Assembly: GCA_049604295.1 (NCBI GenBank)
Contig: JBMYTL010000002.1
Coordinates: forward strand, 4,659 to 68,658
Source: Gammaproteobacteria bacterium
Lineage (GTDB): Bacteria; Pseudomonadota; Gammaproteobacteria; JACKNK01
Reading direction: 5' to 3'
Length of the DNA stretch: 64,000 bases
This document shows positions 3,601 through 41,572 of the stretch, in pieces. Numbering within the stretch: position 1 is the stretch's first letter; every line of letters begins with the position of its first letter. Under the pieces are notes generated by a model, which saw only the letters and a program-made list of their open reading frames with translations, made no database searches and was not told the origin of the DNA. Position numbers and translations under genes: made by a program.

Positions 3601-4540
3601 CGTAGTTCATGAGCCGCTGATAGCGTTCGTCCAGCAGCTTGTCCACGGGCATGGAGGTCACCGCCTGCAGTGCATTGTCGATGGCATCGCGCACGTTGGC
3701 CATGGTGGCCGTGAAATCGCGGTGTGCGCCGCCGAGCGGCTCCTCGATGATGCCGTCGATGAGACCGATGCTCTGTAGGCGATCAGCGGTGAGTCCCAGT
3801 GCCTCGGCGGCCTCGGGTGCCTTCTCGGCGCTCTTCCAGAGGATGGAGGCACAGCCTTCGGGTGAGATAACGGAATAGGTGCTGTATTGGAGCATCAGGA
3901 CGCGGTCGCCAACGCCGATGGCAAGTGCCCCGCCTGAGCCGCCTTCGCCGATGACGGTAGCGATGATGGGGGTGCGGAGATCGGCCATGACGTAGAGATT
4001 GCGCGCAATGGCCTCGGACTGGCCGCGTTCCTCGGCGTCGATTCCCGGGTAGGCCCCCGGGGTGTCGATGAAGGTCAGAACGGGCATCTGGAAGCGCTCC
4101 GCCATGCGCATGATGCGCATGGCCTTACGGTAACCCTCGGGGCGGGGCATGCCGAAGTTGCGGCGGATCTTTTCCTTGGTGTCACGCCCTTTCTGGTGAC
4201 CGATGATCGCGACGGGGCGGCCGTCGAAGCGCGCGATACCCGAGACGATGGCCGGGTCATCGGAGAAGGCGCGATCACCGTGCAACTCTTCGAAATCGGT
4301 GAACAGGTGCTGGATGTAGTCGAGCGTGTACGGGCGCTCAGGGTGGCGGGCGAGCTGGGAGATCTGCCAGGGCGTCAGTTCGGAGAAGATCGACTCGGTC
4401 AGCGAGCGACTCTTGGTCTCCAGGCGCGTGACCTCCTCGTTTATATTGATCTCGTTGTCGTCACCGACATAGCGCAGCTCCTCGATCTTGGCCTGGAGTT
4501 CGGCAATCGGTTTTTCGAAATCGAGGAAGTGTTGACTCAT
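3584..4540 (-). CDS. accA: acetyl-CoA carboxylase carboxyltransferase subunit alpha
   Basis: 318-aa ORF with full-length resemblance to AccA ([18 protein letters not shown]..., [13 protein letters not shown]). Confidence 0.95.
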
Positions 4541-4807: not shown

Positions 4808-7254
<2,447 letters not shown>

Positions 7255-9979: not shown

Positions 9980-10142
9980 CGAGGGGGCGTCCGCATTGCG
10001 ATGTTGCGTTGCACAATGGCGCAGGATTGTGACCGTTGGTCCCCGTCCACGCAAGACGGGACAGGCGAATGCAGCCGCGCGCCCAACGCGCGCCGGCGCG
10101 GTGACGACATAACCCGGTTGGGGGCGGGTAGGGGCTGACGCT

Positions 10143-10814
10143 TCAGAAGGGAACGGGTGCCCGGAGGATCAGTGGTCCGCCATCGGGGTGTGTCGCCCGC
10201 AGACTGTGCGCATGCAGAAGCAATCGACCGGCCGCGTCGCGCACCGCGTCGGGGGCATAGAAGGGGCAGCCGAGAATGGGATGACCCAGGACGGACATGT
10301 GCACGCGCAACTGATGGGTCCGGCCAGTGATTGGGTGTAATGCCAATCGCGTGGTGTACGCACCCTGATTCCGCTCCAGGACCGTCCACCGGGTCAGGGC
10401 GGCCCTGCCGTTCTCCCGGTCGACCTTCTGGAGGGGCCGATTCGGCCAGTCGGTGATCAGGGGCAGGTCGACCTCGCCCTGTTCCTCGTGCACCAAGCCT
10501 GACACCACCGCCACGTACTCCTTGTGCACCAGGCGTTGTTCGAATTGCCTGTTCAGGTGCACGTGCGACTTGTGATCAAGCGCGAGGATCATGAGGCCGG
10601 AGGTGTGCATGTCCAGGCGGTGTACCACCCGAACACAGGGGAAGTCAGCCTGTAAGCGGCTCACCACGCTATCGTGGTTGCGCGGGTCACGGCCGGGCAC
10701 GCTGAGCAGCCCGGCGGGTTTGTCCACGACGATGAGGTGATCGTCCTGGTGGACGGTGATCAGATCCGCCTTGCAGGGTGGGGCGATGTAGCTGCTGTGA
10801 TCGGCGTCAGACAC
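10143..10814 (-). CDS. rluA: RluA-family pseudouridine synthase
   Basis: Catalytic motif HRLDMHTSGLMILA; 223 aa; GTG start. Confidence 0.82.
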   Translation of the reverse strand: MSDADHSSYIAPPCKADLITVHQDDHLIVVDKPAGLLSVPGRDPRNHDSVVSRLQADFPCVRVVHRLDMHTSGLMILALDHKSHVHLNRQFEQRLVHKEYVAVVSGLVHEEQGEVDLPLITDWPNRPLQKVDRENGRAALTRWTVLERNQGAYTTRLALHPITGRTHQLRVHMSVLGHPILGCPFYAPDAVRDAAGRLLLHAHSLRATHPDGGPLILRAPVPF

Positions 10815-10821
10815 GGGGGAG

Positions 10822-10896
10822 TTGTGGGAGCGGGCTCGCCCGCGAACGGGCTTGGGATTCTTCTCGGCCGATTCGCGGGCAAGCCCGCTCCTACGG
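10822..10896. repeat. REP-like inverted repeat pair (GGAGCGGGCT[C/T]GCCCGCGAA arms)
   Basis: The 20-bp arms at 10827-10846 and 10872-10891 are reverse complements with one mismatch, separated by 25 nt. The element sits between the purB stop and the rluA start. The arm sequence resembles the GGGAGCGGGCTTGCCCGCGAA-type REP units seen in pseudomonads and relatives. Confidence 0.6.
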
Positions 10897-10899
10897 GGA

Positions 10900-12402
<1,503 letters not shown>

Positions 12403-12472
12403 TCAAAGGTGGAGTGACACACTCGCGGTGCCACGATTTTCCAGCGTTCATTCCCCCAAAGGAGCGATCATC

Positions 12473-12943
12473 ATGACTCTTCGTTCGGTTCTTACCCTGG
12501 CCCTTGCCGGTTCCCTGCTTTCCGGTACTGCCCTGGCCCAGGACAAGGCGCAAGAGCGCATCCTCAAATACCGTCAGGCCTCCATGGCCCTGGTGGGTGA
12601 CAATTTCGGCTTCATGGGCGCGATGATGAAGGGGGAGATTCCCTGGAATGGTGAGGCCTTCGCCCGCCGTGCCCAGGATCTGGCCGCCGTCTCAAGCCTG
12701 GACCTTCTGCGCGGCTACCCGGAGGGTTCCGAGGGAGGCAAGACCAAGGCCAAGGCGGATATCTGGCTCTCCTTTGACGACTTCAAGGAAAAGATGGAAG
12801 CCTTCCAGGCGGCGGCTCCCGCGCTGGCAAAGGCCGCCCAGGCGGGTGACAAAGGGCAGGCGATGGATGCGTTCAAGGACACGGCCAAGACCTGCAAGGG
12901 CTGCCACAAGGAGTACAAGTCGAAGGAGTGGCTGAACCAGTAA
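12473..12943 (+). CDS. class II cytochrome c (cytochrome c'/c-556 family)
   Basis: A signal peptide (LALAGSLLSGTALA), a four-helix-bundle-sized mature protein and a single C-terminal CKGCH heme motif. An AAAGGAG ribosome-binding site lies 8 nt upstream of the ATG at 12473. Confidence 0.85.
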   Translation: MTLRSVLTLALAGSLLSGTALAQDKAQERILKYRQASMALVGDNFGFMGAMMKGEIPWNGEAFARRAQDLAAVSSLDLLRGYPEGSEGGKTKAKADIWLSFDDFKEKMEAFQAAAPALAKAAQAGDKGQAMDAFKDTAKTCKGCHKEYKSKEWLNQ

Positions 12944-12966
12944 GCCCTGGTTCCTAAGGCGCAAAG

Positions 12967-13000
12967 AAAAAGGCCCGGGTCGTGAGACCCGGGCCTTTTT
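12967..13000. terminator. bidirectional rho-independent terminator
   Basis: AAAAA-GGCCCGGGTC-GTGA-GACCCGGGCC-TTTTT: a perfect 10-bp GC stem flanked by an A-run and a T-run, between the convergent cytochrome c' and EF-G genes. Confidence 0.8.
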
Positions 13001-13024
13001 CGTGGCCGTTCGTCCGCGAGGGAC

Positions 13025-15115
13025 TTACTTGGCGGCTTCCTTGCGCGCCTTTGCTTCCTTGATGACCTCGTCGGCCACGTTCTTGGGACAGGGGTCGTAA
13101 TGGCTGAACTCCATGGAGAACTGGCCACGACCGGAGGTCATGGTGCGCAGGTCACCGATGTAGCCGAACATCTCGGCCAGCGGAGCCTTGGCCTTGACGC
13201 GGGTGCCGGTGGGACCGGATTCCTGACCCTCGATCATGCCGCGGCGGCGGTTGAGGTCGCCGATCACGTCGCCCACGTGCTCTTCGGGGGTGAACACGTC
13301 CACCTTCATGATGGGCTCCATGATCTGGGGGCTGGCCTTGGGCATGGACTGACGGTAGGCAGCCTTGGCGGCGATCTCATAGGCGATGGCCGAAGAGTCC
13401 ACAGGGTGGAAGCCACCATCAAGCAGGGTGAACTTGACGTCCAGGCAGGGGAAGCCGGCCAGCGGACCTTCGTCCATGGAGACCTTGAAGCCTTTTTCGA
13501 CGGCAGGCCAGAACTCACGCGGGACGTTACCGCCGGTGACCTTGGACTCGAACTCGAAACCAACGCCGGTCTCGGCGGGCTCGATGGAGTAGTCGATCTT
13601 GGCGAACTGACCGGAACCACCGGTCTGCTTCTTGTGGGTGTAGCTGTCGTCGATGGAGCCGGTAATGGATTCGCGGTAGGCCACCTGGGGCTTGCCGACG
13701 GTGACTTCCACGCCGTGAGTACGCTTGAGGATGTCCACCTTGATGTCGAGGTGAAGCTCGCCCATACCCTTGATGATGGTCTCGCCGGATTCCTCGTCGG
13801 TCTCGACGCGGAAGGAGGGATCTTCCTGAACCATCTTGGAGATGGCGATGCCCATCTTCTCGGCGGCGCCTTTGTCTTTCGGAGCGATGGCGATGGAGAT
13901 CACCGGCTCGGGGAAGACCATGGGCTCCAGGGTGGCCGGGTTCTTGGGGTCGCAGAGGGTGTGACCGGTCTGGGTATTCTTCATGCCGATCAGGGCGACG
14001 ATGTCCCCGGCCTGGGCGGAGTCCAGCTCGATACGCTCGTCGGCGTGCATCTCGACGATGCGGCCCACGCGCTCGGTCTTGCCGGTGAAGGTGTTGAGGA
14101 TGGTGTCGCCCTTCTTGAGGGTGCCGGAGTAGATGCGGGTGAAGGTCAGGGCGCCGAAACGGTCGTCCATGATCTTGAACGCCAGGGCACGCAGGGGCTT
14201 GGCGGGGTCGACGATGGCCTTGCCACCGGTCTCGTTGCCTTCCAGGTCCACCTCGGGCTGGGGCTCAACCTCGGTGGGGCTGGGCAGGTAATCCACCACG
14301 GCGTCCAGCACCAGCTGGATACCCTTGTTCTTGAAAGCGGAGCCGCAATAGGTGGGGAAGAAGTCCAGGGCGATGGTGCCCTTGCGGATGCAGCGCTTGA
14401 TGTCGTCCATGGACGGCTCGGTGCCTTCCTCCAGGTACTCCATCAGCAGCTCGTCGTCCTGCTCCAGGGCGGTTTCGATGAGCTTCTCGCGCCATTCCTC
14501 GACGGCATCGGCCATGTCGGCCGGGGGCTCTTCGATGGTGTAGTTCATGGGGTCGCCGGAATCGTCCCACACCCAGGCCTTGCGGGTGAGCAGGTCAACC
14601 ACGCCGGTGAAGGCGTCTTCCTCGCCGATGGGCAGAACCATGACCAGGGGGTTGGCGGCCAGCACGTTTTCGACCTGACTGACCACGCGGTAGAAGTCGG
14701 CGCCCAGGCGGTCGAGTTTGTTCACGAAGATCACACGGGCGACTTCGGACTCGTTGGCATAGCGCCAGTTGGTCTCGGACTGGGGCTCAACGCCACCGGA
14801 GCCGCAGAACACGCCCACGCCGCCGTCCAACACCTTGAGAGAGCGGTAGACCTCGATGGTGAAGTCCACGTGTCCGGGGGTGTCGATGATGTTCAGGCGA
14901 TGATCGGCCCAGAACGCGGAGGTGGCGGCGGACTGAATGGTGATACCGCGCTCGGCCTCCTGCTCCATGAAGTCGGTGGTGGCGGCGCCGTCGTGCACCT
15001 CACCGATCTTGTGGATCTTGCCGGTGAGCTTGAGGATGCGCTCGGTGGTCGTCGTCTTGCCGGCGTCCACATGGGCGAAGATGCCGATATTCCGGTATTT
15101 GGAGAGGTCAGTCAT
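13025..15115 (-). CDS. fusA: elongation factor G, stand-alone paralog (EF-G2-type)
   Basis: The N-terminus [28 protein letters not shown] and the full 696-aa length are EF-G-like. It is not next to rpsL/rpsG/tuf. Confidence 0.93.
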
Positions 15116-19834: not shown

Positions 19835-20800
19835 ATGCTCGACGTGTTCTTTACCGTCGATACCGAAACCTGGTGTAACGGCTGGTCGGACCTGGACGCG
19901 CGGTTTCCATCGGCCTTCGGGCGGTACATCCACGGTCACACGCGCAAGGGGGATTACGGTATTCCCCTGCAGATGAAGATCCTCTCCGATCATGGTCTGA
20001 CGGGTGTGTATTTCGTCGAACCGCTGTTCGCGGCCCGCTTCGGCATTGATCCGTTGGCCGAGGTCGTCGGTTTGGTGATGGAGGCGGGGCACGAGGTACA
20101 ACTGCATCTGCACACGGAGTGGGTGGATGAGGCCCACTCCGATCGGCTACCGGAAGTCGCCGGCAAGCGGCAACACCTGCGTTTGTTTGACCTGGACGAT
20201 CAGGTCCAGCTCCTTGGTGAAGGGCGCCGCCTGCTCATGGAGGCGGGGGCACGGGCGCCGAATGCCTTCCGCGCTGGCAATTACGGGTTCAACAACGACA
20301 GCCTCAAGGCCCTCTCGCGCCTGGGCATACGTTTCGACAGCAGCTACAACCCGGCGTCGGTGGCAGGCGTGGCGGACGTTGCCCCGGGGCGCCTGTTGAC
20401 CCAGCCGGAGGAGATTGAAGGTGTCATCGAACATCCGGTGACGGTGTTCCGGGACAGGGGGCCGGGGAGCCTGCGGAACCTGCAATTCACCGCCTGCTCC
20501 TTCGCGGAGATTCGCCACGTGTTGGACAGTGCGGAACAGGCCGGTTGGCAATCCGTCGTCATTGTTTCGCACAGTTTCGAGTTGCTTGGCCGTTCGAAGA
20601 CCGCCCCGGACCCCTGGGCCGTGCGGCGCTTCGAGCGCATGTGCGCGTACCTGGGGCGACACCGGGATCGTTTCACGGTGCGCGGCTTCCGCGGCTTGGC
20701 CGATGATGTGTATGGCGACCAACCCGAGCCCTTGACCTCAAACCCCCTGCGAACCGCCGGACGCTATGCCGAGCAGGCACTGCGGCGTCTGGCGCGTTGA
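19835..20800 (+). CDS. polysaccharide deacetylase-like (CE4-related) protein
   Basis: FFTVDTE and VQLHLHTEW motifs sit where CE4-type metal ligands occur, plus FRAGNYGFN. About 321 aa; ATG at 19835 (the track ORF starts with TTG at 19832). Confidence 0.68.
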   Translation: MLDVFFTVDTETWCNGWSDLDARFPSAFGRYIHGHTRKGDYGIPLQMKILSDHGLTGVYFVEPLFAARFGIDPLAEVVGLVMEAGHEVQLHLHTEWVDEAHSDRLPEVAGKRQHLRLFDLDDQVQLLGEGRRLLMEAGARAPNAFRAGNYGFNNDSLKALSRLGIRFDSSYNPASVAGVADVAPGRLLTQPEEIEGVIEHPVTVFRDRGPGSLRNLQFTACSFAEIRHVLDSAEQAGWQSVVIVSHSFELLGRSKTAPDPWAVRRFERMCAYLGRHRDRFTVRGFRGLADDVYGDQPEPLTSNPLRTAGRYAEQALRRLAR

Positions 20801-20837
20801 TCCGACAAACCCGGTCGACACGAGGAGCAACCAAACG

Positions 20838-22700
20838 ATGAATCGCAAAGACGGGACCGTGGAGGCCGTGCTTGCGGCGCAGGATCTGTTCGAGGTACGC
20901 CGGGCACTCGCTTCAGCGCGTGTTGCTCTGACCCTGCCTCAGGCCCAGACCCTGAGTGCCCATGTCTCCGGCTTGCTCGCCGAATCCGAATCCCTGCGCA
21001 TCGGCTTCGTTCATACCTACACCAGTGACCTGCTCGATCCGTGGCTGGAGCTGGAGGCCGCCGTGCAGGGGCTGGATGTATCGATATATCACGCGCCTTA
21101 TGGCCTCAATGTCATGGAGGCGGAGGCCGGGTCCGGGCTGGAGCAGCATCGCCCGGATCTCACCGTGCTGCTGTTGCGTCGGGAGGATCTTCACCCTGAA
21201 TTGGGCGGGCCCCTGAGCCGTTTTGACGCGGAAGGCGCGAAGGTTCTGCTGGGGGATGTGATCAGCCGCCTCGGCGGCTTGTTACAGCGTTTCAGCCGAC
21301 AACAGTTCGGGGAACTGGTGGTCACCGTTCTGCCCGCCTTGCAGGGGCCGGGGCTCGGGCTTCATGACCCCATGTCGGAACGCTCCGAGACGGCTTGGTG
21401 GGCCGATTTCAACCGTGCCCTGCGCGAGGAGATCCAAGCCCGATTCAACTCCGTCCGTCTTCTCGATCTGGATGCCGTGGTTGCCCAATTGGGCCGGGAG
21501 CGGTTTTTTGATCAGCGCTTCTGGTATTCGGCCACGTTTCCGTTCTCACCCGAGGCGGCCCGGGAAGTGGCCCGCCGCCTGGTGGCCCTGGGTGCGGTGC
21601 GCAAGCACCCCAAGGCGAAGGTGATCGCCCTGGACGCGGATAACACCCTCTGGGGTGGCGTCGTGGGCGAGGACGGGCCCACGGGTATCGCTCTGGGCCC
21701 TGAGTATCCGGGCAACCTGTTCGTGGACTTCCAGAAGCGCCTTCTGGAGTACAAACAGCGTGGATTCGTCCTGGTGTTGTGCAGCAAGAACAACCCGGAG
21801 GACGTCGATCAGATTCTCAGGGAGCACCCTCACTGCGTGCTCAAGGATTCGGATTTCGCAGCCAAGCGTGTCAACTGGGTCAGCAAGCCGGAGAATCTGG
21901 CGTCCATGGCCAAGGAACTGAACCTCGGCATTGATTCGTTCATCTTCGTGGACGATAGCGACTACGAATGCGCCGCCGTGCGCCATGAACTACCCGCGGT
22001 GGAGGTTATCCAGATACCCAAGCGTGTGGTGGATGTGCCCCGTTGTCTCGAAAAGGTCGCCCGGCTCGAGGTCACCAGCCTCACCGCCGAGGATATGAGC
22101 AAGACCCAGATGTACGTGCAGGAGCGCAAGCGGCGCGAGCTTCAGAACGACATGGGCTCCGACGGCGGTGACCTGACGGAATACCTGAAGTCACTGGAAC
22201 TGCGCATGAGCGTTGGCGTGGATGACATGGCCCACGTGAAGCGTCTGGCGCAACTGACCCAGAAGACCAACCAGTTCAATCTCACCACCCGTCGTTACAC
22301 GGAGAAGGAGATCGAAGACATGATCCGCTCGCCGGACTGGCGGGTGTTGCACTTCTCGCTGGTCGATGTGTTCGGTGACAGCGGTGTGGTGGGCTTGGCC
22401 CTGGCGCGTCGCTCGGGCGCGGACATGGCCATGATCGATACCCTGCTCATGTCCTGCCGCGTAATCGGCCGCATGGCGGAAACGGCGTTCCTTTACTCCC
22501 TGTTGGATCGGCTCGCCGGGGAAGGTGTGCGCGAGGTGCGCGCCGAGTATCTGCCCACCCGGAAAAATGCCCTGGTCAAGGATTACCTCCGTGACCACGG
22601 GTTCGAGGAGGAACCCGATGGCACCTGGCGCATCGATCCCGGCGAGACATCGGGACGCTTGGATCCACCCATCGAGATCGTGCTGACCGGCCAGGTTTGA
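20838..22700 (+). CDS. FkbH-like HAD-superfamily (subfamily IIIC) protein with C-terminal GNAT-like domain
   Basis: HAD nucleophile motif VIALDADNTLWGG, LCSKNNPEDV and FVDDSDYE in the central domain. The C-terminus carries LMSCRVIGRMAETAF, a GNAT-like segment. ORF 20766..22700 is trimmed to the ATG at 20838. Confidence 0.85.
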   Translation: MNRKDGTVEAVLAAQDLFEVRRALASARVALTLPQAQTLSAHVSGLLAESESLRIGFVHTYTSDLLDPWLELEAAVQGLDVSIYHAPYGLNVMEAEAGSGLEQHRPDLTVLLLRREDLHPELGGPLSRFDAEGAKVLLGDVISRLGGLLQRFSRQQFGELVVTVLPALQGPGLGLHDPMSERSETAWWADFNRALREEIQARFNSVRLLDLDAVVAQLGRERFFDQRFWYSATFPFSPEAAREVARRLVALGAVRKHPKAKVIALDADNTLWGGVVGEDGPTGIALGPEYPGNLFVDFQKRLLEYKQRGFVLVLCSKNNPEDVDQILREHPHCVLKDSDFAAKRVNWVSKPENLASMAKELNLGIDSFIFVDDSDYECAAVRHELPAVEVIQIPKRVVDVPRCLEKVARLEVTSLTAEDMSKTQMYVQERKRRELQNDMGSDGGDLTEYLKSLELRMSVGVDDMAHVKRLAQLTQKTNQFNLTTRRYTEKEIEDMIRSPDWRVLHFSLVDVFGDSGVVGLALARRSGADMAMIDTLLMSCRVIGRMAETAFLYSLLDRLAGEGVREVRAEYLPTRKNALVKDYLRDHGFEEEPDGTWRIDPGETSGRLDPPIEIVLTGQV

Positions 22701-23072: not shown

Positions 23073-23096
23073 GCCGGCCCCTCCGGTACTGCTCTC

Positions 23097-24002
23097 ATGG
23101 GGCTGGTGGAAAAACTCTCCGCTGTGTTGCACCGGCATCTCGACGCGGAGCGCATGGAGCGGCTGCGGGCGTTGTATTTCGCGTCGCGACGGCGCTTATA
23201 CCCGGTCATGCGGGGCCTGCACGGGACCTTCAACGCCGATGATCTGGTCGATCATCTGCGTGAACGTTTCGCGGAGGATTTCGACATTCTCATGGTGCAC
23301 AGCTCCGTCAATCACATGGAGCCGACCTATACCGGGACGCCCCTGGACCTGGTCAATGCCCTCAAGACCTTCTGTGGCCCCGAGCGAACCCTGGTGATGC
23401 CGGCGTTCTATTTCGGCGATCCCGAATACCCGAGCGTTGCCGCCACGTTTGCCGCCAAGCCCCGTTTCGACCTGCGGCGCACCCCGTCCCAGATGGGCTT
23501 GGCCACGGAGCTGTTCCGTCGTACCCGGGGTGCCGTGCAGAGCCGTCATCCTGTCTACCGGGTCGCGGCCCTGGGCCCCATGGCGGAAGAACTCGTTCGC
23601 GGTCACGAGAGCGCGGGAACACCGAGCGGAACCGGTACGCCTTTCGATTTCATGGCGAAGCATCGCACCCTGATCCTGGGCGTGGGCAAGTTCTCCGATG
23701 TGCTCACCCAGGTCCATCACATCGAGGACGTGATGGGGGATGCGTTTCCGGTGCCCGCGAGCAGCGGTGAGCCGATCGACCTGACTGTCGTGGACAAGGG
23801 CGAGGATATTCCCGTGCGCATCGGTCAGCGGGGCTTTAAATGGCGGCGCGACATGGGGCGTCTCCACGACCTTATGCCGGCGGGTACCCTGCATGAATGG
23901 CGCTTCCACCATGTGCCGATGTTTTCCACCCATGCCCACGCGGTGTCCGAGTCCCTGGAATTGGCGGCGCGCGAGGGACGGACCCTCTACATTCCGCGTT
24001 GA
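23097..24002 (+). CDS. AAC(3)-family (aminoglycoside N3-acetyltransferase-like) acyltransferase
   Basis: ILMVHSSVNHM...TPLDLVNAL...TLVMPAF matches the N-terminal signature region of AAC(3)/YokD-type enzymes; 301 aa. Confidence 0.72.
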   Translation: MGLVEKLSAVLHRHLDAERMERLRALYFASRRRLYPVMRGLHGTFNADDLVDHLRERFAEDFDILMVHSSVNHMEPTYTGTPLDLVNALKTFCGPERTLVMPAFYFGDPEYPSVAATFAAKPRFDLRRTPSQMGLATELFRRTRGAVQSRHPVYRVAALGPMAEELVRGHESAGTPSGTGTPFDFMAKHRTLILGVGKFSDVLTQVHHIEDVMGDAFPVPASSGEPIDLTVVDKGEDIPVRIGQRGFKWRRDMGRLHDLMPAGTLHEWRFHHVPMFSTHAHAVSESLELAAREGRTLYIPR

Positions 24003-33387: not shown

Positions 33388-33447
33388 GTTCAGACCGCGG
33401 TTCAGACCGCAGTTCTGGCTGCGGTTCTGGCTGCGGTTCAGGCCGCC
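33388..33447. repeat. 12-bp tandem repeat x5 with dyad symmetry
   Basis: The units read GTTCAGACCGCG, GTTCAGACCGCA, GTTCTGGCTGCG, GTTCTGGCTGCG, GTTCAGGCCGCC. Units 1-2 are near reverse complements of units 3-4. The array fills the convergent gap and overlaps the alpha-E stop codon. Confidence 0.85.
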
Positions 33448-34394
33448 TGGCTTTGCTCCTGTTCGGCTGTCTTGAGGAAGTACGCTTCCACCACGCTCTG
33501 GTGAATCCTGATGAGGCCCAACTGCAGCTCGTCGATAGCGTCGTGCAGTGAGGGGTCGTCGTGTTTGTCCGCGGTGATGCCGTCCAGTGTGTGCACGAAC
33601 TCGTCCAGGGCGGCCTTGACGATGTCATGGTGCGGCAGTTTCTTCAGTTCCCCGACCATCTGGCCGTGGCAGTAACGTACGGCGCGCGGAAAGTCCTCGT
33701 GATGGAAGAGGAAATCCAGCACGGCCCCGCGCTGAATGCGGACCTGCATGGCCCGGCGATACATCTGGTAGCCGGTCAGAGACTTGAGCACGGCCATCCA
33801 TCGCAGGCCCTCGATGGCGCGGGACTCTTCGTCGGTGCCATGCATGATCGTGGCGGCCTGAACGTCGATCATGCGTGTGGTCATGTCCGCCCGCTCAAGC
33901 TTGCGGCCGATGTTGAAGAAGCTGTAGGCCGCATCGTGGTTCATGCTGCCGGCCAGGATGCCGGTGAGCGTCTGGATGCCCTCGATCAGGCTGGAGAGGA
34001 ATTCAAACCGGCCGTGTTTGGTCAGGCCTTTCTGCAAGCCGTCGCTGACCTGGTGGTAGAGCTCGTTGAGTTTCTCCCAGGCTTCGCGCGGGATGATGTC
34101 GCGGATGGTGCGGGCGTTCTCACGGGCGAAGGCGAGGCTGGAAAGTGTCGAGCCGTGGTTTTCCAGATCGCCAACGATGAAGTGAACGACCCTGCGTTCG
34201 GTGTACTCGTCCCAGCGTGCTTCGAAGGCCTGTTCGCCGCCGAGAATGACGACAAGGGGGCGCCAACCGGGTGTGATGCCCCGGGGCAGGTCCATGAGCA
34301 GGTTCGTGGAGACCTGCGTCAGACGTGCGGTGTTCTCAGCGCGCTCGATATAGCGCCCCATCCAGTAAATCGTTTCGGCGACTCGCGACAACAT
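33438..34394 (-). CDS. alpha-E domain protein (DUF403 family)
   Basis: The N-terminus MLSRVAETIYWMGRYIERAENTARL is the hallmark of alpha-E proteins; 318 aa. Confidence 0.9.
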   Translation of the reverse strand: MLSRVAETIYWMGRYIERAENTARLTQVSTNLLMDLPRGITPGWRPLVVILGGEQAFEARWDEYTERRVVHFIVGDLENHGSTLSSLAFARENARTIRDIIPREAWEKLNELYHQVSDGLQKGLTKHGRFEFLSSLIEGIQTLTGILAGSMNHDAAYSFFNIGRKLERADMTTRMIDVQAATIMHGTDEESRAIEGLRWMAVLKSLTGYQMYRRAMQVRIQRGAVLDFLFHHEDFPRAVRYCHGQMVGELKKLPHHDIVKAALDEFVHTLDGITADKHDDPSLHDAIDELQLGLIRIHQSVVEAYFLKTAEQEQSQAA

Positions 34395-34537
34395 GGCTCT
34401 CTACCTTATCTCTAGCTCCAAGGGTGTCGATCCGCGACGACGGTTCGGATGGACTCCATCAACACACCGTCCGCGAGGCGGACACCCCCGGAATTCAAAA
34501 CCCAAAACTCATAATTCAAAGTTCGCGCGCCAGCGCG

Positions 34538-35983
34538 CTAGACGTCTACGATCCAGGTGTCCTTGGACCCGCCCCCCTGGGAGCTGTTGACCACGAGTGA
34601 GCCCTTGCGCAGGGCGACGCGGGTCAGCCCGCCCATGGTCACCTCCTGGGTTTTGCCCGTGAGGATGAACGGCCGCAAGTCCAGGTGACGCGGCTCCAGG
34701 GTTTTGCCGATCACGGTCGGCGTGGTGGACAGCGACAGCGTGGGTTGGGCGATGTAGTTGCGCGGGTCGGCCTTGATCAGTTCCTTGAACTTGGCGCGCT
34801 CGGCCTTGGTGGACGCCGGCCCCACGAGCATGCCGTAGCCACCGGACTCGTTGGCGGGTTTAACCACCAGATCCTTGATGTTGGCGAGTACGTACTCCAG
34901 GGAGTCCTCGTCCATGCAGCGGTAGGTGGGGACGTTGGGAACGATGGGGTCCTCGCCCAGGTAGTACTTGATGATGTCCGGTACGTAGGAATAGACCACC
35001 TTGTCGTCAGCGACGCCGGCTCCGGGGGCATTGGCCAGGGCGACGTTACCGGCCTTCCAGGCGCGCATGAGCCCGGGTACGCCCAGCAGCGATTCCTTGT
35101 CGAAGACCTCCGGATCCATGAACAGGTCATCAATGCGGCGGTAAATCACATCGACGCGCTCGGGGCCCTCAATGGTGCGCATATAGACGCAATCGTCATC
35201 GTCAACGTACAGATCACGACCCTCGACCAGTTCACAGCCCATCTGCTGCGCGAGATAGGAGTGCTCGAAGTAGGCTGAATTGAAGATGCCGGGGGTCAGC
35301 ACCACGATCTCCGGGGTGTCCCCGGGGCGGGGGCTCAGGGAGGCAAGGGTGTCGAACAGGTCCGAGGGGTATTCGTCCACCGGCAGGGGGGCGTACTCGC
35401 GAAACAGTTCGGGGAAGACGCGCTTGGTGACCAGGCGGTTTTCCAGCATGTACGACACGCCGGACGGCACACGCAGGTTGTCCTCCAGAACGTACAGGGT
35501 GCCGTCGCCATCGCGCACCAGGTCCGATCCGCAGATATGGGCCCATATTCCCAACGGCGGGCTGACCCCGATGCATTGCTTGCGGAAGTTGACGGAGTTC
35601 TTCAGCAGGTCACCAGGGAAGACTTTGTCCTTGACGATCTTCTGGTCGTGATAGAGGTCGTCGATGAACAGGTTGAGGGCGTGAACGCGCTGTTTCAGGC
35701 CCTTGGCCGTTTGGTCCCATTCCTTCTTTGCGATGATCCTGGGAATGATGTCGAAGGGCCATGCCCGGTCGATGGAACCTTCCTCCTGGGTGTACACCCG
35801 GAAGGTCACGCCCATCTGTTTCATGGACAGGTCGGCTTCAGCCTGTCGTTGCTGGAGGTCTTCGGTGTCCAGTTCGTCCAGGAAGGAAACCAGCTCCTTC
35901 GCGGCTGCGCGGGGTTTGCTTTCTTCATCTATGAGTTCGTCGAAAAAATCCGATTTCTCATAGGCTTGCCAGTTTATTGTCAT
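34538..35983 (-). CDS. circularly permuted type-2 ATP-grasp protein
   Basis: 481 aa with a typical sequence for this family (WPFDIIPRII, YVLEDNLRVPSGVSYMLENR, VVKPANESGGYGM). It sits in the canonical position upstream of alpha-E. Confidence 0.9.
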   Translation of the reverse strand: MTINWQAYEKSDFFDELIDEESKPRAAAKELVSFLDELDTEDLQQRQAEADLSMKQMGVTFRVYTQEEGSIDRAWPFDIIPRIIAKKEWDQTAKGLKQRVHALNLFIDDLYHDQKIVKDKVFPGDLLKNSVNFRKQCIGVSPPLGIWAHICGSDLVRDGDGTLYVLEDNLRVPSGVSYMLENRLVTKRVFPELFREYAPLPVDEYPSDLFDTLASLSPRPGDTPEIVVLTPGIFNSAYFEHSYLAQQMGCELVEGRDLYVDDDDCVYMRTIEGPERVDVIYRRIDDLFMDPEVFDKESLLGVPGLMRAWKAGNVALANAPGAGVADDKVVYSYVPDIIKYYLGEDPIVPNVPTYRCMDEDSLEYVLANIKDLVVKPANESGGYGMLVGPASTKAERAKFKELIKADPRNYIAQPTLSLSTTPTVIGKTLEPRHLDLRPFILTGKTQEVTMGGLTRVALRKGSLVVNSSQGGGSKDTWIVDV

Positions 35984-36070
35984 GTCATTTCTAGCTCTTT
36001 GGTGCCGCCCCTTGCGTGTTTCGGGGCTCCTCTTGATGCGTTTCGGTATGGCCCTCCCTGGCCTGTCGGG

Positions 36071-39000
36071 TCAGCGCCTGGGTGGATGGCGCAGGTCGAG
36101 GGTCCAGGGGAAGTCGGGGTTGGGGTTCTCGTCGGGCGGCGTGATGGCCGAGCTTGTATGGCCGGTCTTGGAGAAGCGGGCCAGGCGTCGGGACTCGGCT
36201 TCGTTGGCATTCACCGGGAAGGTCTCATAGCTGCGCCCGCCCGGGTGAGCCACGTGGTAACTGCATCCGCCCAGGGAGCGGTCATTCCAGGTGTCGACGA
36301 TGTCGAAGGTGAGCGGGGCCTGCACGCCGATGGTGGGGTGCATGCCCGAGGGCGGTGCCCAGGCCTTGAAGCGGACGCCGGAAACGAACTCACCCCGGGT
36401 ACCGGTGGAGCGCAGGGGCAGGCGGCGACCGTTGCAGGCGATGACGTGGCGGCCTTCCACCAGGCCCTGGGCCTTGACCTGGAGCCGTTCCACGGAGGAA
36501 TCCACGAAGCGGGCGGTGCCCAGGGCGGTGATCTCCTCGCCGAGCACGTTCCAGGGCTCGATGGCGAAGCGCAGTTCCATTTCCACGTCGTCCACGTTGA
36601 TGGTGCCGTAGCGGGGGAAGCGGAACTCCACGAAGGGGTCGAACCAAGCCGGGTCGAAGTCGTAGCCGGCACGATTGATGTCATGCACGACGTCGTGAAT
36701 GTCGCGCTCCACGTAGTGGGGCAGCATAAAGCGGTCGTGCAGTTCCGTGCCCCAACGCACGGGGTCGTGGTCGTAGGGTTTGTCCCAGAAGCGCGCGATC
36801 AGGGTGCGCAGCAGCAACTGCTGTACTGAGGACATGCGCGAGTGCGGCGGCATTTCGAAGCCGCGGAATTCCACCAGGCCCAGGCGGCCGGTGGGGCCGT
36901 CGGGGGAGTAGAGCTTGTCGATGCAGAACTCGGCGCGGTGGGTGTTGCCGGTCAGGTCCACCAGCAGATGGCGGAGGATGCGGTCCACCAACCAGGGGGC
37001 GGGGGTCTCGCCGGGTGGCACCTCGCTGAAGGCGATGCCCAATTCATAGAGGCTGTCGTCGCGGGCCTCGTCCACGCGTGGGGCCTGGGAGGTTGGGCCG
37101 ATGAACAGGCCGGAGAACAGGTAGGAGAGCGAGGGGTGGTGCTGCCAATAGGTGATCAGCGAGCGCAGCAGATCGGGCCGACGCAGGATGGGGCTGTCAG
37201 CGGGTTTGGCCGCGCCAATGGTGACGTGGTTGCCGCCGCCGGTGCCGCTGTGTCGCCCGTCGAGCATGAATTTCTCGGTGCCCAGGCGCGACTGGCGTGC
37301 CTCCTCGTAGAGGACTTCGGTGTTGCTCACCAGTTCGCGCCAGTCGTTGGCGGGATGCACGTTGACCTCGATGACGCCCGGGTCGGGGGTGACGTTGAGG
37401 CGCATGAGGCGCGGATCGTGGGGCGGCTCGTAACCCTCCATGATCAGGGGTACGCCGGTCTCCGTGGCGGCGGCCTCCAGGGCGTTGAGCAGGTCCAGGT
37501 AGTGTTCAAGTTCCTCGAGCGGGGGCAGGAACACATGCACGTGACCGTCGCGGGGCTCCACGCAGAGGGCGGTGCGCACCACGTTGCCTTCCGCTTCCTC
37601 TTCCTTGCTCGGTCGGGCATCGGCGGCACGAGGCTCGGGCGGGCGGGCGATGACCTCGCCAGACTGCACCATGCGCAGGCGGTCGCGGATCTCCGGCAAC
37701 TCGTCGCGCTCATCGAACGGGTCCTTGGGGATGACCTGTTGGCGGTTCTTCTTCGGCTCCCAGATCAGGGAATCGAGGGGTAGGCGGTAGCCCATGGCCG
37801 AGTCACCGGGGATCAGGAACATATTGCCGCGCCGGAAGGCCCAGGGACCGGAGATCCAGCTGTCCTTACGGTAGTCCCAGGCCACGGGAAGGGCGAAGCC
37901 CACCTTGTGGTTGAGGCCCTGGTCGAAGACTTTACGCAGACGCGCGCGCTCCATGGGGTCGGCCATCTTGTTGTCGAGTACGTCCACGTTGGAGGGCAGG
38001 GTGCCTTCCTTCCACAGGTAGTAGATCGCGTCCTCGTAGCCGGGTACCACGTTCGAAGTCGGCACCCCGAGGTGCTTGGCGATGGCCTGGGCCATACGCA
38101 GGGCATCGGTGGTACCGCTGTCACCATCGGTGGCCGGGTCGGCCAGCAAATCGGGTTCGTTCCAGACGGACTGGCCGTCGCGGCGCCAGTAACAGCCCAG
38201 CGCCCAGCGTGGCAGTTGTTCGCCGGGGTACCATTTTCCCTGGCCGTAGTGCAGCACGCCGTTGGCGCCGAAAGCCTTCTTCAGCTTGCGCACCAGAACG
38301 CCGGCGCGCTCCAGTTTGTGCTTGCCCAGGGCGGCGGTGTTCCACTGCGGGCTGTCCATGTCGTCGATGGATACGAAGGTGGGTTCGCCGCCCATGGTCA
38401 GGCGCACGTCGTTCTTGTCGAGCATCCGGTCCACGTGGTCGCCCAGGGCGAGGATGGCCTGCCACTGCTCATCGGTGTACGGCTTGGTGACGCGGGGATC
38501 TTCGCGGATGCGGGTGACGGAGTTTTCGAACTCGAAGGTGACTTCGCATTTGTCGCTGGCGCCGACAATCGGCGCGGCGCTTACCGGGTCAGGGGTGCAG
38601 GCCAGGGGGATGTGGCCTTCACCGGCAAACAGGCCCGAGGTGGGGTCCAGACCCACCCAACCGGCGCCCGGGATGTAGACCTCGGCCCAGGCATGCAGAT
38701 CAGTGAAGTCCTCCTCGGGGCCTGACGGACCATCCAGGGCTTTCTGGTCGGCGGTGAGCTGCACGAGGTAGCCGGAGACGAAACGGGCGGCGAGGCCCAT
38801 ATGCCGCAGAATCTGCACCAGCAGCCAGGCGGAGTCGCGGCAGGAACCGGTCTTGCACTGCAAGGTCTCCTCGCAGGTCTGGATCCCCACCTCCATGCGA
38901 ATGTTGTAGCCGATGGCTTGCTCGAGACGCTGGTTCAGCTCGACCAGGAAATGAACGATATGCGGCCCGTTCGGCAGGTCGTCGTCTTCCTCCGCCATGG

Positions 39001-39436
39001 CGCGGGTCGCTGCGCGGCCGGGCATGTCGGCGCGCAGATCTTCCAAGAGCTTGGTGAGAAGAGGGCCGCGTTCCTTGATCTCCAGGTAGGGGGCCAGTTC
39101 CTTGCGTTCCTGGTCGGCGTACTTGAATGGGTAGTGGCTCGAGTAATCCTCGACGAAGAAATCGAACGGGTTGATGGTCACCAGGTCGGCGACAACCGAT
39201 ACGTCCACCACCAGCTTGGTGGCCTTCTCCGGAAACACGAGGCGCGCGATGTAGTTGCCGAAGGGATCCTGCTGCCAGTTGAGGAACTGTTCCTCGGGCT
39301 CGACCTTGAGGGAGTAATGGTGAATCGGCGTGCGGCTGTGCGGCGCAGGGCGCAGTCGAACCAGGTGGGGTGACAGGGCGACGGGCCGATCGTAGTGGTA
39401 TTCCGTACGGTGCCGGATGGCGACGCGTATCGACAT
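36071..39436 (-). CDS. transglutaminase-like / DUF2126 fusion protein
   Basis: Bact_transglu_N-like start (MSIRVAIRHRTEYHYDRPV), a transglutaminase core with Cys (GSCRDSAWLL) and His/Asp (DLHAWAEVY...GLDPTSG), then a DUF2126-like region of about 800 aa. ORF trimmed to the ATG at 39436. Confidence 0.9.
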   Translation of the reverse strand: MSIRVAIRHRTEYHYDRPVALSPHLVRLRPAPHSRTPIHHYSLKVEPEEQFLNWQQDPFGNYIARLVFPEKATKLVVDVSVVADLVTINPFDFFVEDYSSHYPFKYADQERKELAPYLEIKERGPLLTKLLEDLRADMPGRAATRAMAEEDDDLPNGPHIVHFLVELNQRLEQAIGYNIRMEVGIQTCEETLQCKTGSCRDSAWLLVQILRHMGLAARFVSGYLVQLTADQKALDGPSGPEEDFTDLHAWAEVYIPGAGWVGLDPTSGLFAGEGHIPLACTPDPVSAAPIVGASDKCEVTFEFENSVTRIREDPRVTKPYTDEQWQAILALGDHVDRMLDKNDVRLTMGGEPTFVSIDDMDSPQWNTAALGKHKLERAGVLVRKLKKAFGANGVLHYGQGKWYPGEQLPRWALGCYWRRDGQSVWNEPDLLADPATDGDSGTTDALRMAQAIAKHLGVPTSNVVPGYEDAIYYLWKEGTLPSNVDVLDNKMADPMERARLRKVFDQGLNHKVGFALPVAWDYRKDSWISGPWAFRRGNMFLIPGDSAMGYRLPLDSLIWEPKKNRQQVIPKDPFDERDELPEIRDRLRMVQSGEVIARPPEPRAADARPSKEEEAEGNVVRTALCVEPRDGHVHVFLPPLEELEHYLDLLNALEAAATETGVPLIMEGYEPPHDPRLMRLNVTPDPGVIEVNVHPANDWRELVSNTEVLYEEARQSRLGTEKFMLDGRHSGTGGGNHVTIGAAKPADSPILRRPDLLRSLITYWQHHPSLSYLFSGLFIGPTSQAPRVDEARDDSLYELGIAFSEVPPGETPAPWLVDRILRHLLVDLTGNTHRAEFCIDKLYSPDGPTGRLGLVEFRGFEMPPHSRMSSVQQLLLRTLIARFWDKPYDHDPVRWGTELHDRFMLPHYVERDIHDVVHDINRAGYDFDPAWFDPFVEFRFPRYGTINVDDVEMELRFAIEPWNVLGEEITALGTARFVDSSVERLQVKAQGLVEGRHVIACNGRRLPLRSTGTRGEFVSGVRFKAWAPPSGMHPTIGVQAPLTFDIVDTWNDRSLGGCSYHVAHPGGRSYETFPVNANEAESRRLARFSKTGHTSSAITPPDENPNPDFPWTLDLRHPPRR

Positions 39437-39465
39437 GGTGCAGGTGTCTCTTGGATGTGCTCTAA

Positions 39466-39484
39466 AATGGTGCGTCGCACCATT
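39466..39484. promoter_or_regulatory. perfect 19-bp palindrome AATGGTGCG-T-CGCACCATT (candidate operator or 5' UTR hairpin)
   Basis: 9-bp arms are exact reverse complements. It lies 30 nt upstream of the transglutaminase/DUF2126 ATG, inside the 237-bp divergent region shared with the Anbu gene. Confidence 0.4.
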
Positions 39485-39673
39485 GGGTGGAGGCGCGATA
39501 CTCCCCCATTTCACCCCATCTGAACAGCGTTGCATCAACCATGCCATGGGCATCGGATGATGGGGCTCTCATTGGCCTGATTGCGGGATTGAAGTCGTGG
39601 CCAAGGTGAAGGTGGCCAATGGGGCGTGGGGAATGCATAAAATCATGGGCCCGCAATTTGCTAAGTCCTGACC

Positions 39674-40510
39674 ATGACCTACTGCGTTGGCTTGAGACTC
39701 AACGATGGCCTGGTGTTCGCTTCGGACTCCCGAACGAACGCCGGCGTCGATTACGTCACCACGTACTCGAAGATGCACGTGCTGACCCCGGCACCGGATC
39801 GCACCTTCGTGATTCTTTCCGCGGGTAACCTCGCTACCACGCAGGCGGTGGTGAACCGCGTGCGCCGGGATCTGGATTTCCCGGACGGTGGCGAAAACCT
39901 CCTCAGCGCACGCTACTTGTTCGAAGCCGCGGAATACCTCGGAAGGGTGAGTGTCGGGACCCAGATGCAGCATTCGGACGCACTGGCCGCGTGCAATGTG
40001 AGTGGCGAGACGACGCTTATCCTGGGCGGACAGATCGGCAATCAGCCCCATGGGCTTTTCCTGATCTACCCTCAGGGCAACTACATCGAAGCCTCCACCT
40101 CCACCCCGTACCTGCAGATCGGCGAGACCAAATACGGGAAGCCGGTGCTCGACCGTGTGATCCGCTCCGACCTGAGTCTGGAGGATGCCGCCCGCCTGGC
40201 CCTGGTTTCGTTGAACTCCACGGCCCATTCCAATACCACCGTGGGTCCGCCGTTCGAGCTGTCCATTCTGCGTGCCGGGTGCCAGGGCCTGTCCGCCCAT
40301 TGTGTTCTGGGCGATCACGGCGATTTTCTGTCGACCCTGGAGCAGGCATGGCGGGACGGTCTCAATGCCGTGTTCGCGAATCTGCCCCGCTTCGATTGGG
40401 AGGACCGCATGAGCCAGGACAGCATCGCCTTCGATGAACCGGGGGAGGCGCCGTCTCAGCAGCAGGCCCAGGTGATTCCCGTGCGACCGGGCGATATCCG
40501 CGGCGGGTGA
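39674..40510 (+). CDS. Anbu (ancestral beta-subunit) proteasome-like Ntn-hydrolase
   Basis: MTYCVGLRLNDGLVFASDSRTNAG places Thr directly after the initiator Met (nucleophile without a propeptide), with Asp and Lys at about the spacing seen in proteasome beta subunits; 278 aa. Confidence 0.85.
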   Translation: MTYCVGLRLNDGLVFASDSRTNAGVDYVTTYSKMHVLTPAPDRTFVILSAGNLATTQAVVNRVRRDLDFPDGGENLLSARYLFEAAEYLGRVSVGTQMQHSDALAACNVSGETTLILGGQIGNQPHGLFLIYPQGNYIEASTSTPYLQIGETKYGKPVLDRVIRSDLSLEDAARLALVSLNSTAHSNTTVGPPFELSILRAGCQGLSAHCVLGDHGDFLSTLEQAWRDGLNAVFANLPRFDWEDRMSQDSIAFDEPGEAPSQQQAQVIPVRPGDIRGG

Positions 40511-40657
40511 TCCGCGGGCTTCGGTCCTGGCGCGTCCGGTTTGCCGTCCAGCCTCGTGCCCGGGGCGCTCCATGTATCCGGTAATTGCCACTGAATCAGT
40601 GTTTGTATGGCGCGTGGGCCTTAGTGTCGCAGGCGTTTTGCGTTCACAATCCACGGG

Positions 40658-41572
40658 ATGAATCTTCGCGACCTGCGCTACCTCATCGCCGTATCGGAAC
40701 ATAAACATTTCGGCCACGCCGCTGATGCGTGCTTCGTCAGCCAGCCCACCCTGAGTGGCCAGATCAAGAAGCTCGAGGAATCGTTGGGCGTCAAGGTGTT
40801 TGAGCGGACCAACAGGTCCGTGGAAATTACCCCGGTAGGACAGCGCATCCTGGTCCATGCGCGACGTGCCATCGAACAGGCCGAAATGATTGAGGCGGTG
40901 GCGAAGGCCCACCAGGACCCGCTGGCCGGTCCGCTCCGATTGGGCGTCATTCCGACCCTGGGTCCGTATGTGGCGCCCCTGCTGCTGGTGCCGCTGCGAC
41001 GTTCGTACCCGCAGATGCGCCTGATCCTGTCTGAACAGGTGACTGAGACGACATTGCACCTGTTACGCCGTCACGAAATAGACGTTGCGCTCATTGCGAC
41101 GCCCATCGATGACCCGGATCTCGTGGCCCGGCCCTTGTTCGATGAGCCCTTCTGGCTGGCGCATCCCCGCGATCATGTCCTTTATACGGCGGACGAGGTG
41201 CGTGCGACGGATATCCCCGACGACGAACTGCTGTTGCTGGACGATGGCCATTGCCTGTCGCGGCAGGTGATGGAGGTGTGTTCGTTGCACGAAGGGGAAT
41301 CCGGCGCCTTCGGAGACTTGCGGGCAGCGAGCCTTGAGACCCTGATCCAGATGGTCGGTGCCGGATTCGGCTGCACCCTGGTTCCCGCCCTGGCCTTGCG
41401 CAGTTCCTGGACCACCGACGCCGGGGTGATTGTGCGTCCGTTGGAGGACAAGGATGCGTTTCGCCGAATCTCACTGGTCAGTCGCGCAAGCTTCCCCCGT
41501 CCCGAGGCCGTCAATGCGGTCGCTGAGGCGCTGCTGGCCCAGTTGCCCAACACGGTGAAGGTGATCGAATGA
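40658..41572 (+). CDS. oxyR: LysR-family hydrogen peroxide sensor OxyR
   Basis: HTH N-terminus (LRYLIAVSEHKHFGHAADACFVSQPTLSGQIKKLE) and the redox Cys pair context LLLLDDGHCLSRQVMEVC, equivalent to OxyR C199/C208. Confidence 0.85.
   Translation: MNLRDLRYLIAVSEHKHFGHAADACFVSQPTLSGQIKKLEESLGVKVFERTNRSVEITPVGQRILVHARRAIEQAEMIEAVAKAHQDPLAGPLRLGVIPTLGPYVAPLLLVPLRRSYPQMRLILSEQVTETTLHLLRRHEIDVALIATPIDDPDLVARPLFDEPFWLAHPRDHVLYTADEVRATDIPDDELLLLDDGHCLSRQVMEVCSLHEGESGAFGDLRAASLETLIQMVGAGFGCTLVPALALRSSWTTDAGVIVRPLEDKDAFRRISLVSRASFPRPEAVNAVAEALLAQLPNTVKVIE

Follow-up and report, generated by a model that had tools for sequence, protein, structure and literature searches.

Anbu is a widespread relative of the proteasome for which structures have been solved, and the locus described here raises the question of how this protein is tied to the large transglutaminase-family gene and the ligase genes that lie beside it. 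The locus is part of a stretch of 64,000 nucleotides of contig JBMYTL010000002.1 (assembly GCA_049604295.1, Gammaproteobacteria bacterium, lineage JACKNK01), the whole of which is called the window below. Three genes on the minus strand, which together form a ligase arm, run divergently from an Anbu gene on the plus strand, the two arms being separated by a spacer of 237 bp (39437-39673). The explanation that we favour, with moderate confidence, is that of a chromosomal Anbu-associated amide-ligase module in its large-transglutaminase form, whose ligase arm would be under sigma-54/nitrogen control and which would serve the turnover of amide conjugates; the locus does not settle the function of Anbu itself. 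The four genes are the following:

39674-40510, plus strand: Anbu-1-type proteasome-like hydrolase with an N-terminal nucleophile (Ntn) threonine, 278 aa, from Protein Data Bank (PDB) matches and alignment
36071-39436, minus strand: large transglutaminase-family protein (TG-DUF2126), 1121 aa, from Pfam; first gene of the ligase arm
34538-35983, minus strand: circularly permuted type-2 ATP-grasp ligase (CP_ATPgrasp_2/CP_ATPgrasp_1, COG2308 type), 481 aa, from Pfam and PDB
33438-34394, minus strand: Alpha-E protein (COG2307 type), 318 aa, from Pfam; last gene of the ligase arm

Domain families were assigned with Pfam, and structural relatives by sequence matches to the PDB and by Foldseek. That the parts are correctly identified as an Anbu-associated amide-ligase module of the large-transglutaminase form can be considered close to certain. 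An earlier interpretation, made from the letters of the DNA alone (the sequence-only reading), had given the coordinates, domains, gaps of 87 and 143 bp, spacer of 237 bp and catalytic residues of these genes, all of which were borne out by the list of open reading frames (ORFs) and by Pfam. Its proposal that the 278-aa protein is an Anbu-type Ntn-hydrolase is confirmed by PDB matches over residues 1-243, the best being the designed Anbu-1 consensus 5loy (1.1e-66), besides 5nyw (4e-56), 5nyj, 5nyf and 5lox; natural Anbu structures matched at 4e-56 to 9e-50. The protein starts with MTYCVG, the Thr standing right after the initiator Met with no propeptide, and in the Thr1 numbering Asp17 (FASDSRTNAG) and Lys32 (YSKMH) are both invariant in 28 homologues, whereas a C-terminal tail of about 35 aa is variable. 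At the S1-pocket positions the window protein carries T20/Y30/S48/L52/T55, compared with T20, F30, T48, L52 and S55 in Pseudomonas aeruginosa Anbu, (PMC5666114); the three substitutions are conservative and may amount to a small shift in specificity. The active site of Anbu binds proteasome inhibitors (PMC5666114). Tyr30 sits in a YVTTYSKM motif and is invariant across the sub-clade to which this Anbu belongs. The association of Anbu, ATP-grasp, Alpha-E and transglutaminase had been described in the sequence-only reading as lacking an assigned function, in agreement with a 2021 paper stating that none is known for Anbu (PMC8665760).

The N-terminal part of TG-DUF2126 matched Bact_transglu_N (1.2e-27) and, in its papain-like core, Transglut_core (2.4e-16), and the protein also matched PF09899 (DUF2126) over the whole model, positions 1-826 of 826, with 1365 bits. 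When translation begins at 39436 the N-domain already aligns with Pfam from residue 6, so that a longer ORF reaching up to 39553 is not needed. Cys199/His248/Asp264 align with the Cys/His/Asp of P. aeruginosa TgpA (6g49) and are invariant in 30 of 30 aligned TG-DUF2126 homologues, so that the intact catalytic core claimed for the giant protein stands; Foldseek placed the N-terminal part close to 3isr (7e-10). Judged by its homologues, the fusion of the transglutaminase and DUF2126 regions is the standard architecture of a very large family: homologues of the same architecture are 64-76% identical, at least 8000 were found, and all of the 120 matches listed have the same three Pfam domains and about 1100 aa, their source annotation being "transglutaminase family protein". 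An exhaustive search with the DUF2126 part retrieved 6413 cluster representatives at 50% identity; most full-length DUF2126 matches begin near residue 270-290 of the target, which implies the same N-terminal transglutaminase extension.

The ATP-grasp protein (CP_ATPgrasp_2, 6e-165; CP_ATPgrasp_1 is also matched) aligns nearly full-length with PDB 3n6x (7e-167), a structural-genomics entry annotated as a putative glutathionylspermidine synthase. It is 65-78% identical to its counterparts in related loci and 51-54% to the enzymes of canonical Anbu operons (51% in Klebsiella), and distant from a third paralogue in Thioalkalivibrio (36-40%); since it groups with the canonical-operon enzymes, the module is best seen as a variant form of the Anbu operon rather than a system unrelated to it. 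Alpha-E (Pfam, 2.6e-84) has no homologue with a solved structure according to a PDB search. The 87- and 143-bp gaps between the minus-strand genes hold no plausible ORF and are too short for a tag gene. The latter, between ATP-grasp and Alpha-E, is unusually long, being 0-75 bp in relatives, and contains on the minus strand, at 34460-34490, a GC-rich hairpin (GTCCGC-CTC-GCGGAC) with no T-run. A homology search found no second copy of any module gene in the window. The giant fusion is also the only transglutaminase there, as the sequence-only reading had maintained: a tblastn search of the 64 kb yielded no second one, while the same search picked up the small transglutaminases of two contrast loci (L082 and L089).

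To place this arrangement among others, one genome per species of the Genome Taxonomy Database (GTDB) was scanned with an Anbu alignment, with patterns chosen for this sub-clade, and the window proteins were mapped onto the best 80 of at least 596 Anbu loci to classify their layouts; the resulting frequencies hold for close relatives and not for Anbu as a whole. The layouts were distributed as follows:

Layout identical to the window (Alpha-E <- ATP-grasp <- TG-DUF2126, divergent from Anbu), complete: 8 of 80 loci
Window layout as far as a short contig allows: 3 of 80
Giant gene reduced to a 63-codon remnant (L009): 1 of 80
Giant gene downstream of Anbu: 3 of 80
ATP-grasp/Alpha-E divergent from Anbu, no transglutaminase within 10 kb: 23 of 80
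Co-directional: 2 of 80
Other linked arrangements: 10 of 80
Anbu alone, mostly picocyanobacteria or short contigs: 30 of 80

The window layout is thus shared by related sulfur bacteria: it is found in 11 of the 80 loci, and in 26 more of these Anbu is divergent from ATP-grasp/Alpha-E. Further contigs that have it are L084, L086 and the complete genome of the cultured Thiosocius teredinicola (CP019936.1). Divergent Anbu is the majority layout in this sub-clade, and the window is no isolated case but a regular representative of a variant typical of the lineage. In the related Chromatiales, Sedimenticolaceae and Thiodiazotropha-type gammaproteobacteria the conserved entity is the four-gene unit, around which flanking genes vary from lineage to lineage; Alpha-E invariably adjoins ATP-grasp in the related loci. 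Distant Anbu loci (Klebsiella, Burkholderia, Ralstonia, Paracoccus; 35-43% identity) are co-directional with a small transglutaminase. The architecture had been called atypical on the basis of the sequence alone, and this is correct with respect to the textbook operon; it does not hold for the fusion, which is standard, nor for the layout, which is common in the sub-clade and not the rarity that had been supposed. Nor is the linkage of TG-DUF2126, ATP-grasp and Alpha-E itself new, being already on record, for example, in Burkholderia cenocepacia (I35_5080-83). Valas and Bourne noted that Anbu is sometimes located outside the operon of its partners (PMC3235984). The variant recurs in public genomes and we found no description of it in the accessible literature; a full-text literature search for DUF2126 returned no papers.

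Single loci of the survey show how such modules are rearranged. In L009 (metagenome-assembled genome of a gammaproteobacterium, CAWIHS010000004.1; 9497-9820), the first 63 TG-DUF2126 codons are left between ATP-grasp and Anbu, and the sigma-54 element and GCACC boxes described below are retained. The locus appears to have lost the giant gene through a recent deletion, which suggests that the layouts without transglutaminase derive from that of the window. L083, on a megaplasmid of Acidithiobacillus caldus (NZ_CP005987.1, 5368-17237), is co-directional, in the order Anbu, transglutaminase part (288-aa ORF, 9803-10669), a 1.4-kb insert with a 422-aa ORF, DUF2126 part (12067-14595), ATP-grasp and Alpha-E; a second Anbu-like ORF (5368-6189) is annotated as hypothetical, and two insertion sequence (IS) transposases plus glnA, glnL and ntrC lie within 9 kb. 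In L012 (10001-12666) a co-directional set of TG-DUF2126, ATP-grasp and Alpha-E is followed downstream by two Anbu paralogues; between these, which are 1.1 kb apart, lies a small transglutaminase-like ORF (10888-11694, minus). Two Thioalkalivibrio loci, L071 (2177-12536) and L054 (9187-13559), carry a second, distant ATP-grasp/Alpha-E pair (36-40% and 26% identity) and a small transglutaminase convergent to Anbu; in L071 this second ligase pair directly adjoins the set of the TG-DUF2126 type, so that two paralogous ligase systems can flank one Anbu. L086, which shares the window layout, is flanked by an eCIS_core-domain gene and a Roc/COR GTPase gene (2603-3649, 12120-14144), illustrating the free turnover of the neighbours of the module.

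The divergent spacer contains candidate signals for each arm:

39531-39546, minus strand: sigma-54-type -24/-12 element TGGCATGGTTGATGCA, 94 nt upstream of the TG-DUF2126 ATG
39467-39483, minus strand: palindrome ATGGTGCGACGCACCAT, in the predicted 5' leader
39458-39474, minus strand: NtrC-like dyad CGCACCATTTTAGAGCA, in the predicted 5' leader
39437-39441, minus strand: GCACC box, abutting the TG-DUF2126 ATG
39638-39643, plus strand: sigma-70-like -10 hexamer TAAAAT, 31 nt upstream of the Anbu ATG; a weak prediction

TGGCATGGTTGATGCA is the sole match to TGGCAYN6TGCW on either strand of the window, with 0.78 expected, and -24/-12 elements in the same orientation, 50-94 nt from the ATG, were found in L001-L004, L009, L010, L016, L084 and L086; T. 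teredinicola has a weaker candidate. The spacer has largely diverged from that of the nearest relative, L084, while the promoter element and the leader block are conserved. Boxes like those at 39437-39483 are also present in L001-L005, L009 and L086, and in loci of the Thiodiazotropha type GGCACCAATCTGGAGCA agrees at 12 of 14 positions with the classical NtrC site TGCACCA-N3-TGGTGCA and is accompanied by a GCGCACC-ATG. A -24/-12 element, TGGCATAATTAATGCT, together with an upstream NtrC-like dyad, occurs in the canonical operon of Klebsiella, and on the A. caldus megaplasmid glnA-glnL-ntrC stand beside the Anbu/TG-DUF2126/ATP-grasp/Alpha-E cluster. The motif picture of the window fits what has been published on Burkholderia and Pseudomonas, where such clusters are under NtrC/sigma-54 control: I35_5080-83 of B. 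cenocepacia H111 are strongly NtrC- and sigma-54-dependent (PMC5491218), and the three ligase-arm genes of P. putida, PP_2686-88, are 11- to 37-fold up under nitrogen limitation, as compared with only 1.1- to 4.8-fold for its Anbu, PP_2685 (PMC7801951). We therefore regard sigma-54/nitrogen control of the ligase arm, as predicted from these motifs, as moderately probable.

The position of the GCACC boxes, in the predicted 5' leader, would also allow them to work at the RNA level, through a leader hairpin or an alternative pairing that masks the start codon, and not as NtrC sites; indeed two copies of GCACCAU are available for pairing with AUGGUGC, and one of them overlaps the AUG. Such a mechanism appears improbable. 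Leader folding is no better than that of shuffled sequences in the window and in L084 (z 0.11 and -0.62), the window has no Rfam match, the hairpin is missing in Thiodiazotropha-type relatives that retain the boxes, and the box sequence is the classical NtrC half-site TGCACCA. A leader RNA element was accordingly rejected as the main explanation.

On the Anbu side the spacer has no -24/-12 element, and a scan with a stricter consensus found no full sigma-70 promoter; a TAnnnT box is present 30-50 nt upstream of Anbu in each relative of layout class A. Downstream, a spacer of 147 bp with a weak hairpin at 40589-40601 separates Anbu from the next gene, an OxyR-type regulator, and the Anbu gene is probably monocistronic. 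At the level of motifs, then, the suggestion that the two arms can be regulated independently, also put forward in the sequence-only reading, is supported, with a sigma-54 element serving the ligase arm and a weak sigma-70-like -10 hexamer in front of Anbu. The same separation of strands and predicted promoters would suit a different interpretation, in which Anbu is functionally independent of the ligase genes in this lineage, a housekeeping peptidase whose adjacency to them is an evolutionary relic; Anbu has no nearby partner in 30 of the 80 related loci (most of them from picocyanobacteria or on short contigs), its induction in P. putida is weak, and in Yersinia no physical interaction with its partners was detected. 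We consider this unlikely, because in about 40 loci the adjacency has survived several rearrangements (layouts A, B, C and D) and changing flanks, and such persistence argues for selection on the linkage between Anbu and the ligases.

In the explanation that we favour, the three ligase-arm genes would form one operon transcribed from the sigma-54 promoter with its NtrC-like boxes, and nitrogen limitation would thus induce them, an induction measured for the Burkholderia and Pseudomonas homologues, while Anbu would be expressed independently, from a weak sigma-70-type promoter of its own. ATP-grasp/Alpha-E and DUF2126 would be ATP-dependent carboxylate-amine ligases building, on a peptide or protein, an amide-linked conjugate of the gamma-glutamyl or peptide type; the Cys-His-Asp domain, being fused to DUF2126, would act in cis, either supplying the amide nitrogen or reversing the bond, much like the amidase part of glutathionylspermidine synthetase/amidase (GspSA); and Anbu would hydrolyse the modified product in trans, the net effect being a regulated turnover of peptides or proteins that salvages nitrogen. 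This biochemical scheme, as distinct from the identity of the parts, is put forward tentatively. Pfam labels DUF2126 as a putative amidoligase. A model of full-length TG-DUF2126 obtained with AlphaFold2 was too poor for use (predicted local distance difference test, pLDDT, 61.5), and that of residues 293-1121, the DUF2126 part, reached a pLDDT of 72 and a predicted template modelling (pTM) score of 0.75; in Foldseek the latter gave recurrent alignments of 300-377 columns to glutamine synthetase and gamma-glutamylmethylamide synthetase, which are weak (E 0.5-1.3). A profile search against PDB sequences matched the transglutaminase part only and returned nothing for the DUF2126 region. In the Yersinia operon the ATP-grasp hydrolyses ATP with release of phosphate (PMC6376114).

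Several observations weigh against this account, in its regulatory as well as in its biochemical part. Taken in the window alone the NtrC-like dyad is not significant (8 matches, 3.8 expected), for which reason the argument from it rests on conservation; an enhancer would not usually be found downstream of its promoter, as the NtrC-like boxes are with respect to the predicted one; and no ORF of the window has the GAFTGA motif of a sigma-54 activator. Among the relatives whose first gene is ATP-grasp, the sigma-54 element is present in only 3 of 26, so that it goes with the giant gene being first, and GCACC boxes upstream of ATP-grasp in general are found in only 3 of 44. An amidoligase fold of DUF2126 is not supported by a significant PDB match (Foldseek, best E 0.09). 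Finally, purified Anbu had no peptidase activity on standard proteasome substrates, and no stable complex of Yersinia Anbu with its operon partners was detected (PMC6376114).

The chemistry may be of another kind, the ligase arm making a small peptide or gamma-glutamyl-amide metabolite instead of modifying proteins, with the transglutaminase domain and Anbu as peptidases of maturation or recycling. Iyer et al. in 2009 reportedly made a peptide-synthesis proposal for the association, and the inventory of the module, with two predicted ligases, two hydrolases and no tag gene, nor room for one in the gaps between the minus-strand genes, agrees with it, as does the closeness of the ATP-grasp to the putative glutathionylspermidine synthase structure 3n6x. 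We hold this for possible, if rather doubtful: the related loci examined have no transporter or export gene in conserved association with the module, and Anbu forms large multi-site ring-like assemblies, from which Fuchs et al. argue for processive protein degradation (PMC5666114). Returning to the favoured turnover of amide conjugates, a bolder form of it would be a module split within the clade into a "writer" inducible by nitrogen starvation (TG-DUF2126 with ATP-grasp/Alpha-E) and a constitutive "degrader", Anbu, that is, an analogue of pupylation without a tag gene in which amino-acid or gamma-glutamyl marks single out proteins for breakdown by Anbu and nitrogen is recycled. This form is speculative and quite unlikely, and so is what it would require of the sigma-54 promoter, whose NtrC sites would have an unusual position, within the leader and overlapping the start codon.

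The window also contains, near the module, an M20 peptidase, DUF3581, an OxyR-type LysR regulator and a thioredoxin-like gene. The regulator (40658-41572, plus strand), 147 bp downstream of Anbu, scores 244.8 bits against a cut-off of 329 for the NCBIfam OxyR equivalog and carries the GHCLSRQVMEVC motif (GHC...C), i.e. two cysteines at the spacing of OxyR C199/C208. The sequence-only reading had correctly listed the M20 peptidase, DUF3581 and the OxyR-like LysR, and had seen in them a context of peptide metabolism and oxidative stress. Extended to an island under OxyR control, concerned with oxidative stress and the catabolism of peptides and including the M20 dipeptidase and DUF3581, this idea could draw on the redox cysteine pair of the adjacent regulator, on the thioredoxin-like gene and M20 peptidase nearby, and on synteny, since oxyR, the thioredoxin-like gene and chorismate synthase are retained in the nearest relative, L084 (89% identical). 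They are retained in no other relative, however, and apart from one weak LysR match none of the 80 loci has M20, DUF3581, IalB, the thioredoxin-like gene or OxyR beside the module. Neither 39437-39673 nor 40511-40657 contains an OxyR box (like ATAGnTnnnAnCTAT, with up to 3 mismatches). OxyR control was rejected for the lack of such sites together with that of conserved linkage, and, the wider window being ordinary housekeeping chromosome, the island as a whole is highly improbable; the signal indicated for the ligase arm is nitrogen and not peroxide.

Two further candidates were discarded. A mobile island was rejected on account of the GC content, which is even along the window, and of flanks that are ordinary housekeeping chromosome, and an anti-phage defence system because PADLOC gave no match for any of the four proteins. 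No gene for an AAA+ unfoldase lies beside the module, the sole AAA-type ATPase found in the window being AFG1-like and about 23 kb away. Elsewhere in the window, an ORF at 23073-23999 (plus) resembles the aminoglycoside 3-N-acetyltransferase family (Antibiotic_NAT, 2.8e-30) and stands amid housekeeping genes; a 654-aa ORF at 20736-22697 (plus) has a coding-like GC content at third codon positions and no Pfam match, and two adjacent smaller ORFs at 6279-6875 and 6879-7250 (minus) have no Pfam match either.

A gammaproteobacterial sub-clade thus keeps Anbu beside a large TG-DUF2126 ligase arm, under different predicted promoters. This points to nitrogen limitation as the condition of interest and suggests the products of the ligase arm as candidate substrates for Anbu, and the cultured T. 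teredinicola, with its complete genome and the same layout, is a possible experimental system. Should the sigma-54/NtrC prediction fail, the locus would be an ordinary rearranged copy of a known cluster.

The nearest known system is the canonical Anbu operon (P. putida PP_2688-2685, P. aeruginosa PA1733, Yersinia bercovieri), which is made of the same four families, mutually adjacent as in the window, with the Anbu-1 residues Thr1/Asp17/Lys32 and an ATP-grasp 51-54% identical to that of the window; in Klebsiella a sigma-54 element precedes the first ligase gene, and nitrogen induction is known for the canonical form. The canonical operons sampled are co-directional, in the order ATP-grasp, Alpha-E, transglutaminase and Anbu, with a transglutaminase of about 270 aa (contrast loci L082, L089, L090 and L093), whereas in the window TG-DUF2126, of 1121 aa, comes first, a small transglutaminase is missing and Anbu is divergent with its own predicted promoter. 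The large-transglutaminase cluster (DUF2126/COG4196) of B. cenocepacia H111, I35_5080-83, resembles the window in that the fusion adjoins a circularly permuted ATP-grasp (DUF404/407) and Alpha-E (DUF403); its gene list includes a separate small transglutaminase and no Anbu, the window being the opposite on both counts, and in another B. cenocepacia strain the Anbu locus is an operon of the canonical kind with a small transglutaminase. Rv2566-Rv2569c of Mycobacterium tuberculosis we take to be a further example of the large-transglutaminase cluster.

Two more distant systems share the logic proposed for the module. In the Pup-proteasome system of actinobacteria, composed of the ligase PafA, the deamidase Dop and the 20S proteasome, it is established that a carboxylate-amine ligase of the glutamine synthetase type and an amidase stand beside a threonine protease of the proteasome family; unlike that system, the locus of the window has neither a Pup-like tag gene nor an AAA+ unfoldase, and Anbu is an open split ring without demonstrated protease activity. 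In Escherichia coli GspSA a papain-like Cys-His amidase at the N-terminus and an ATP-dependent amide ligase at the C-terminus are parts of one polypeptide. TG-DUF2126 would have the same arrangement of amidase and ligase in cis, built from different families, with a transglutaminase core in the place of CHAP and DUF2126 in that of the GspS-type ATP-grasp.

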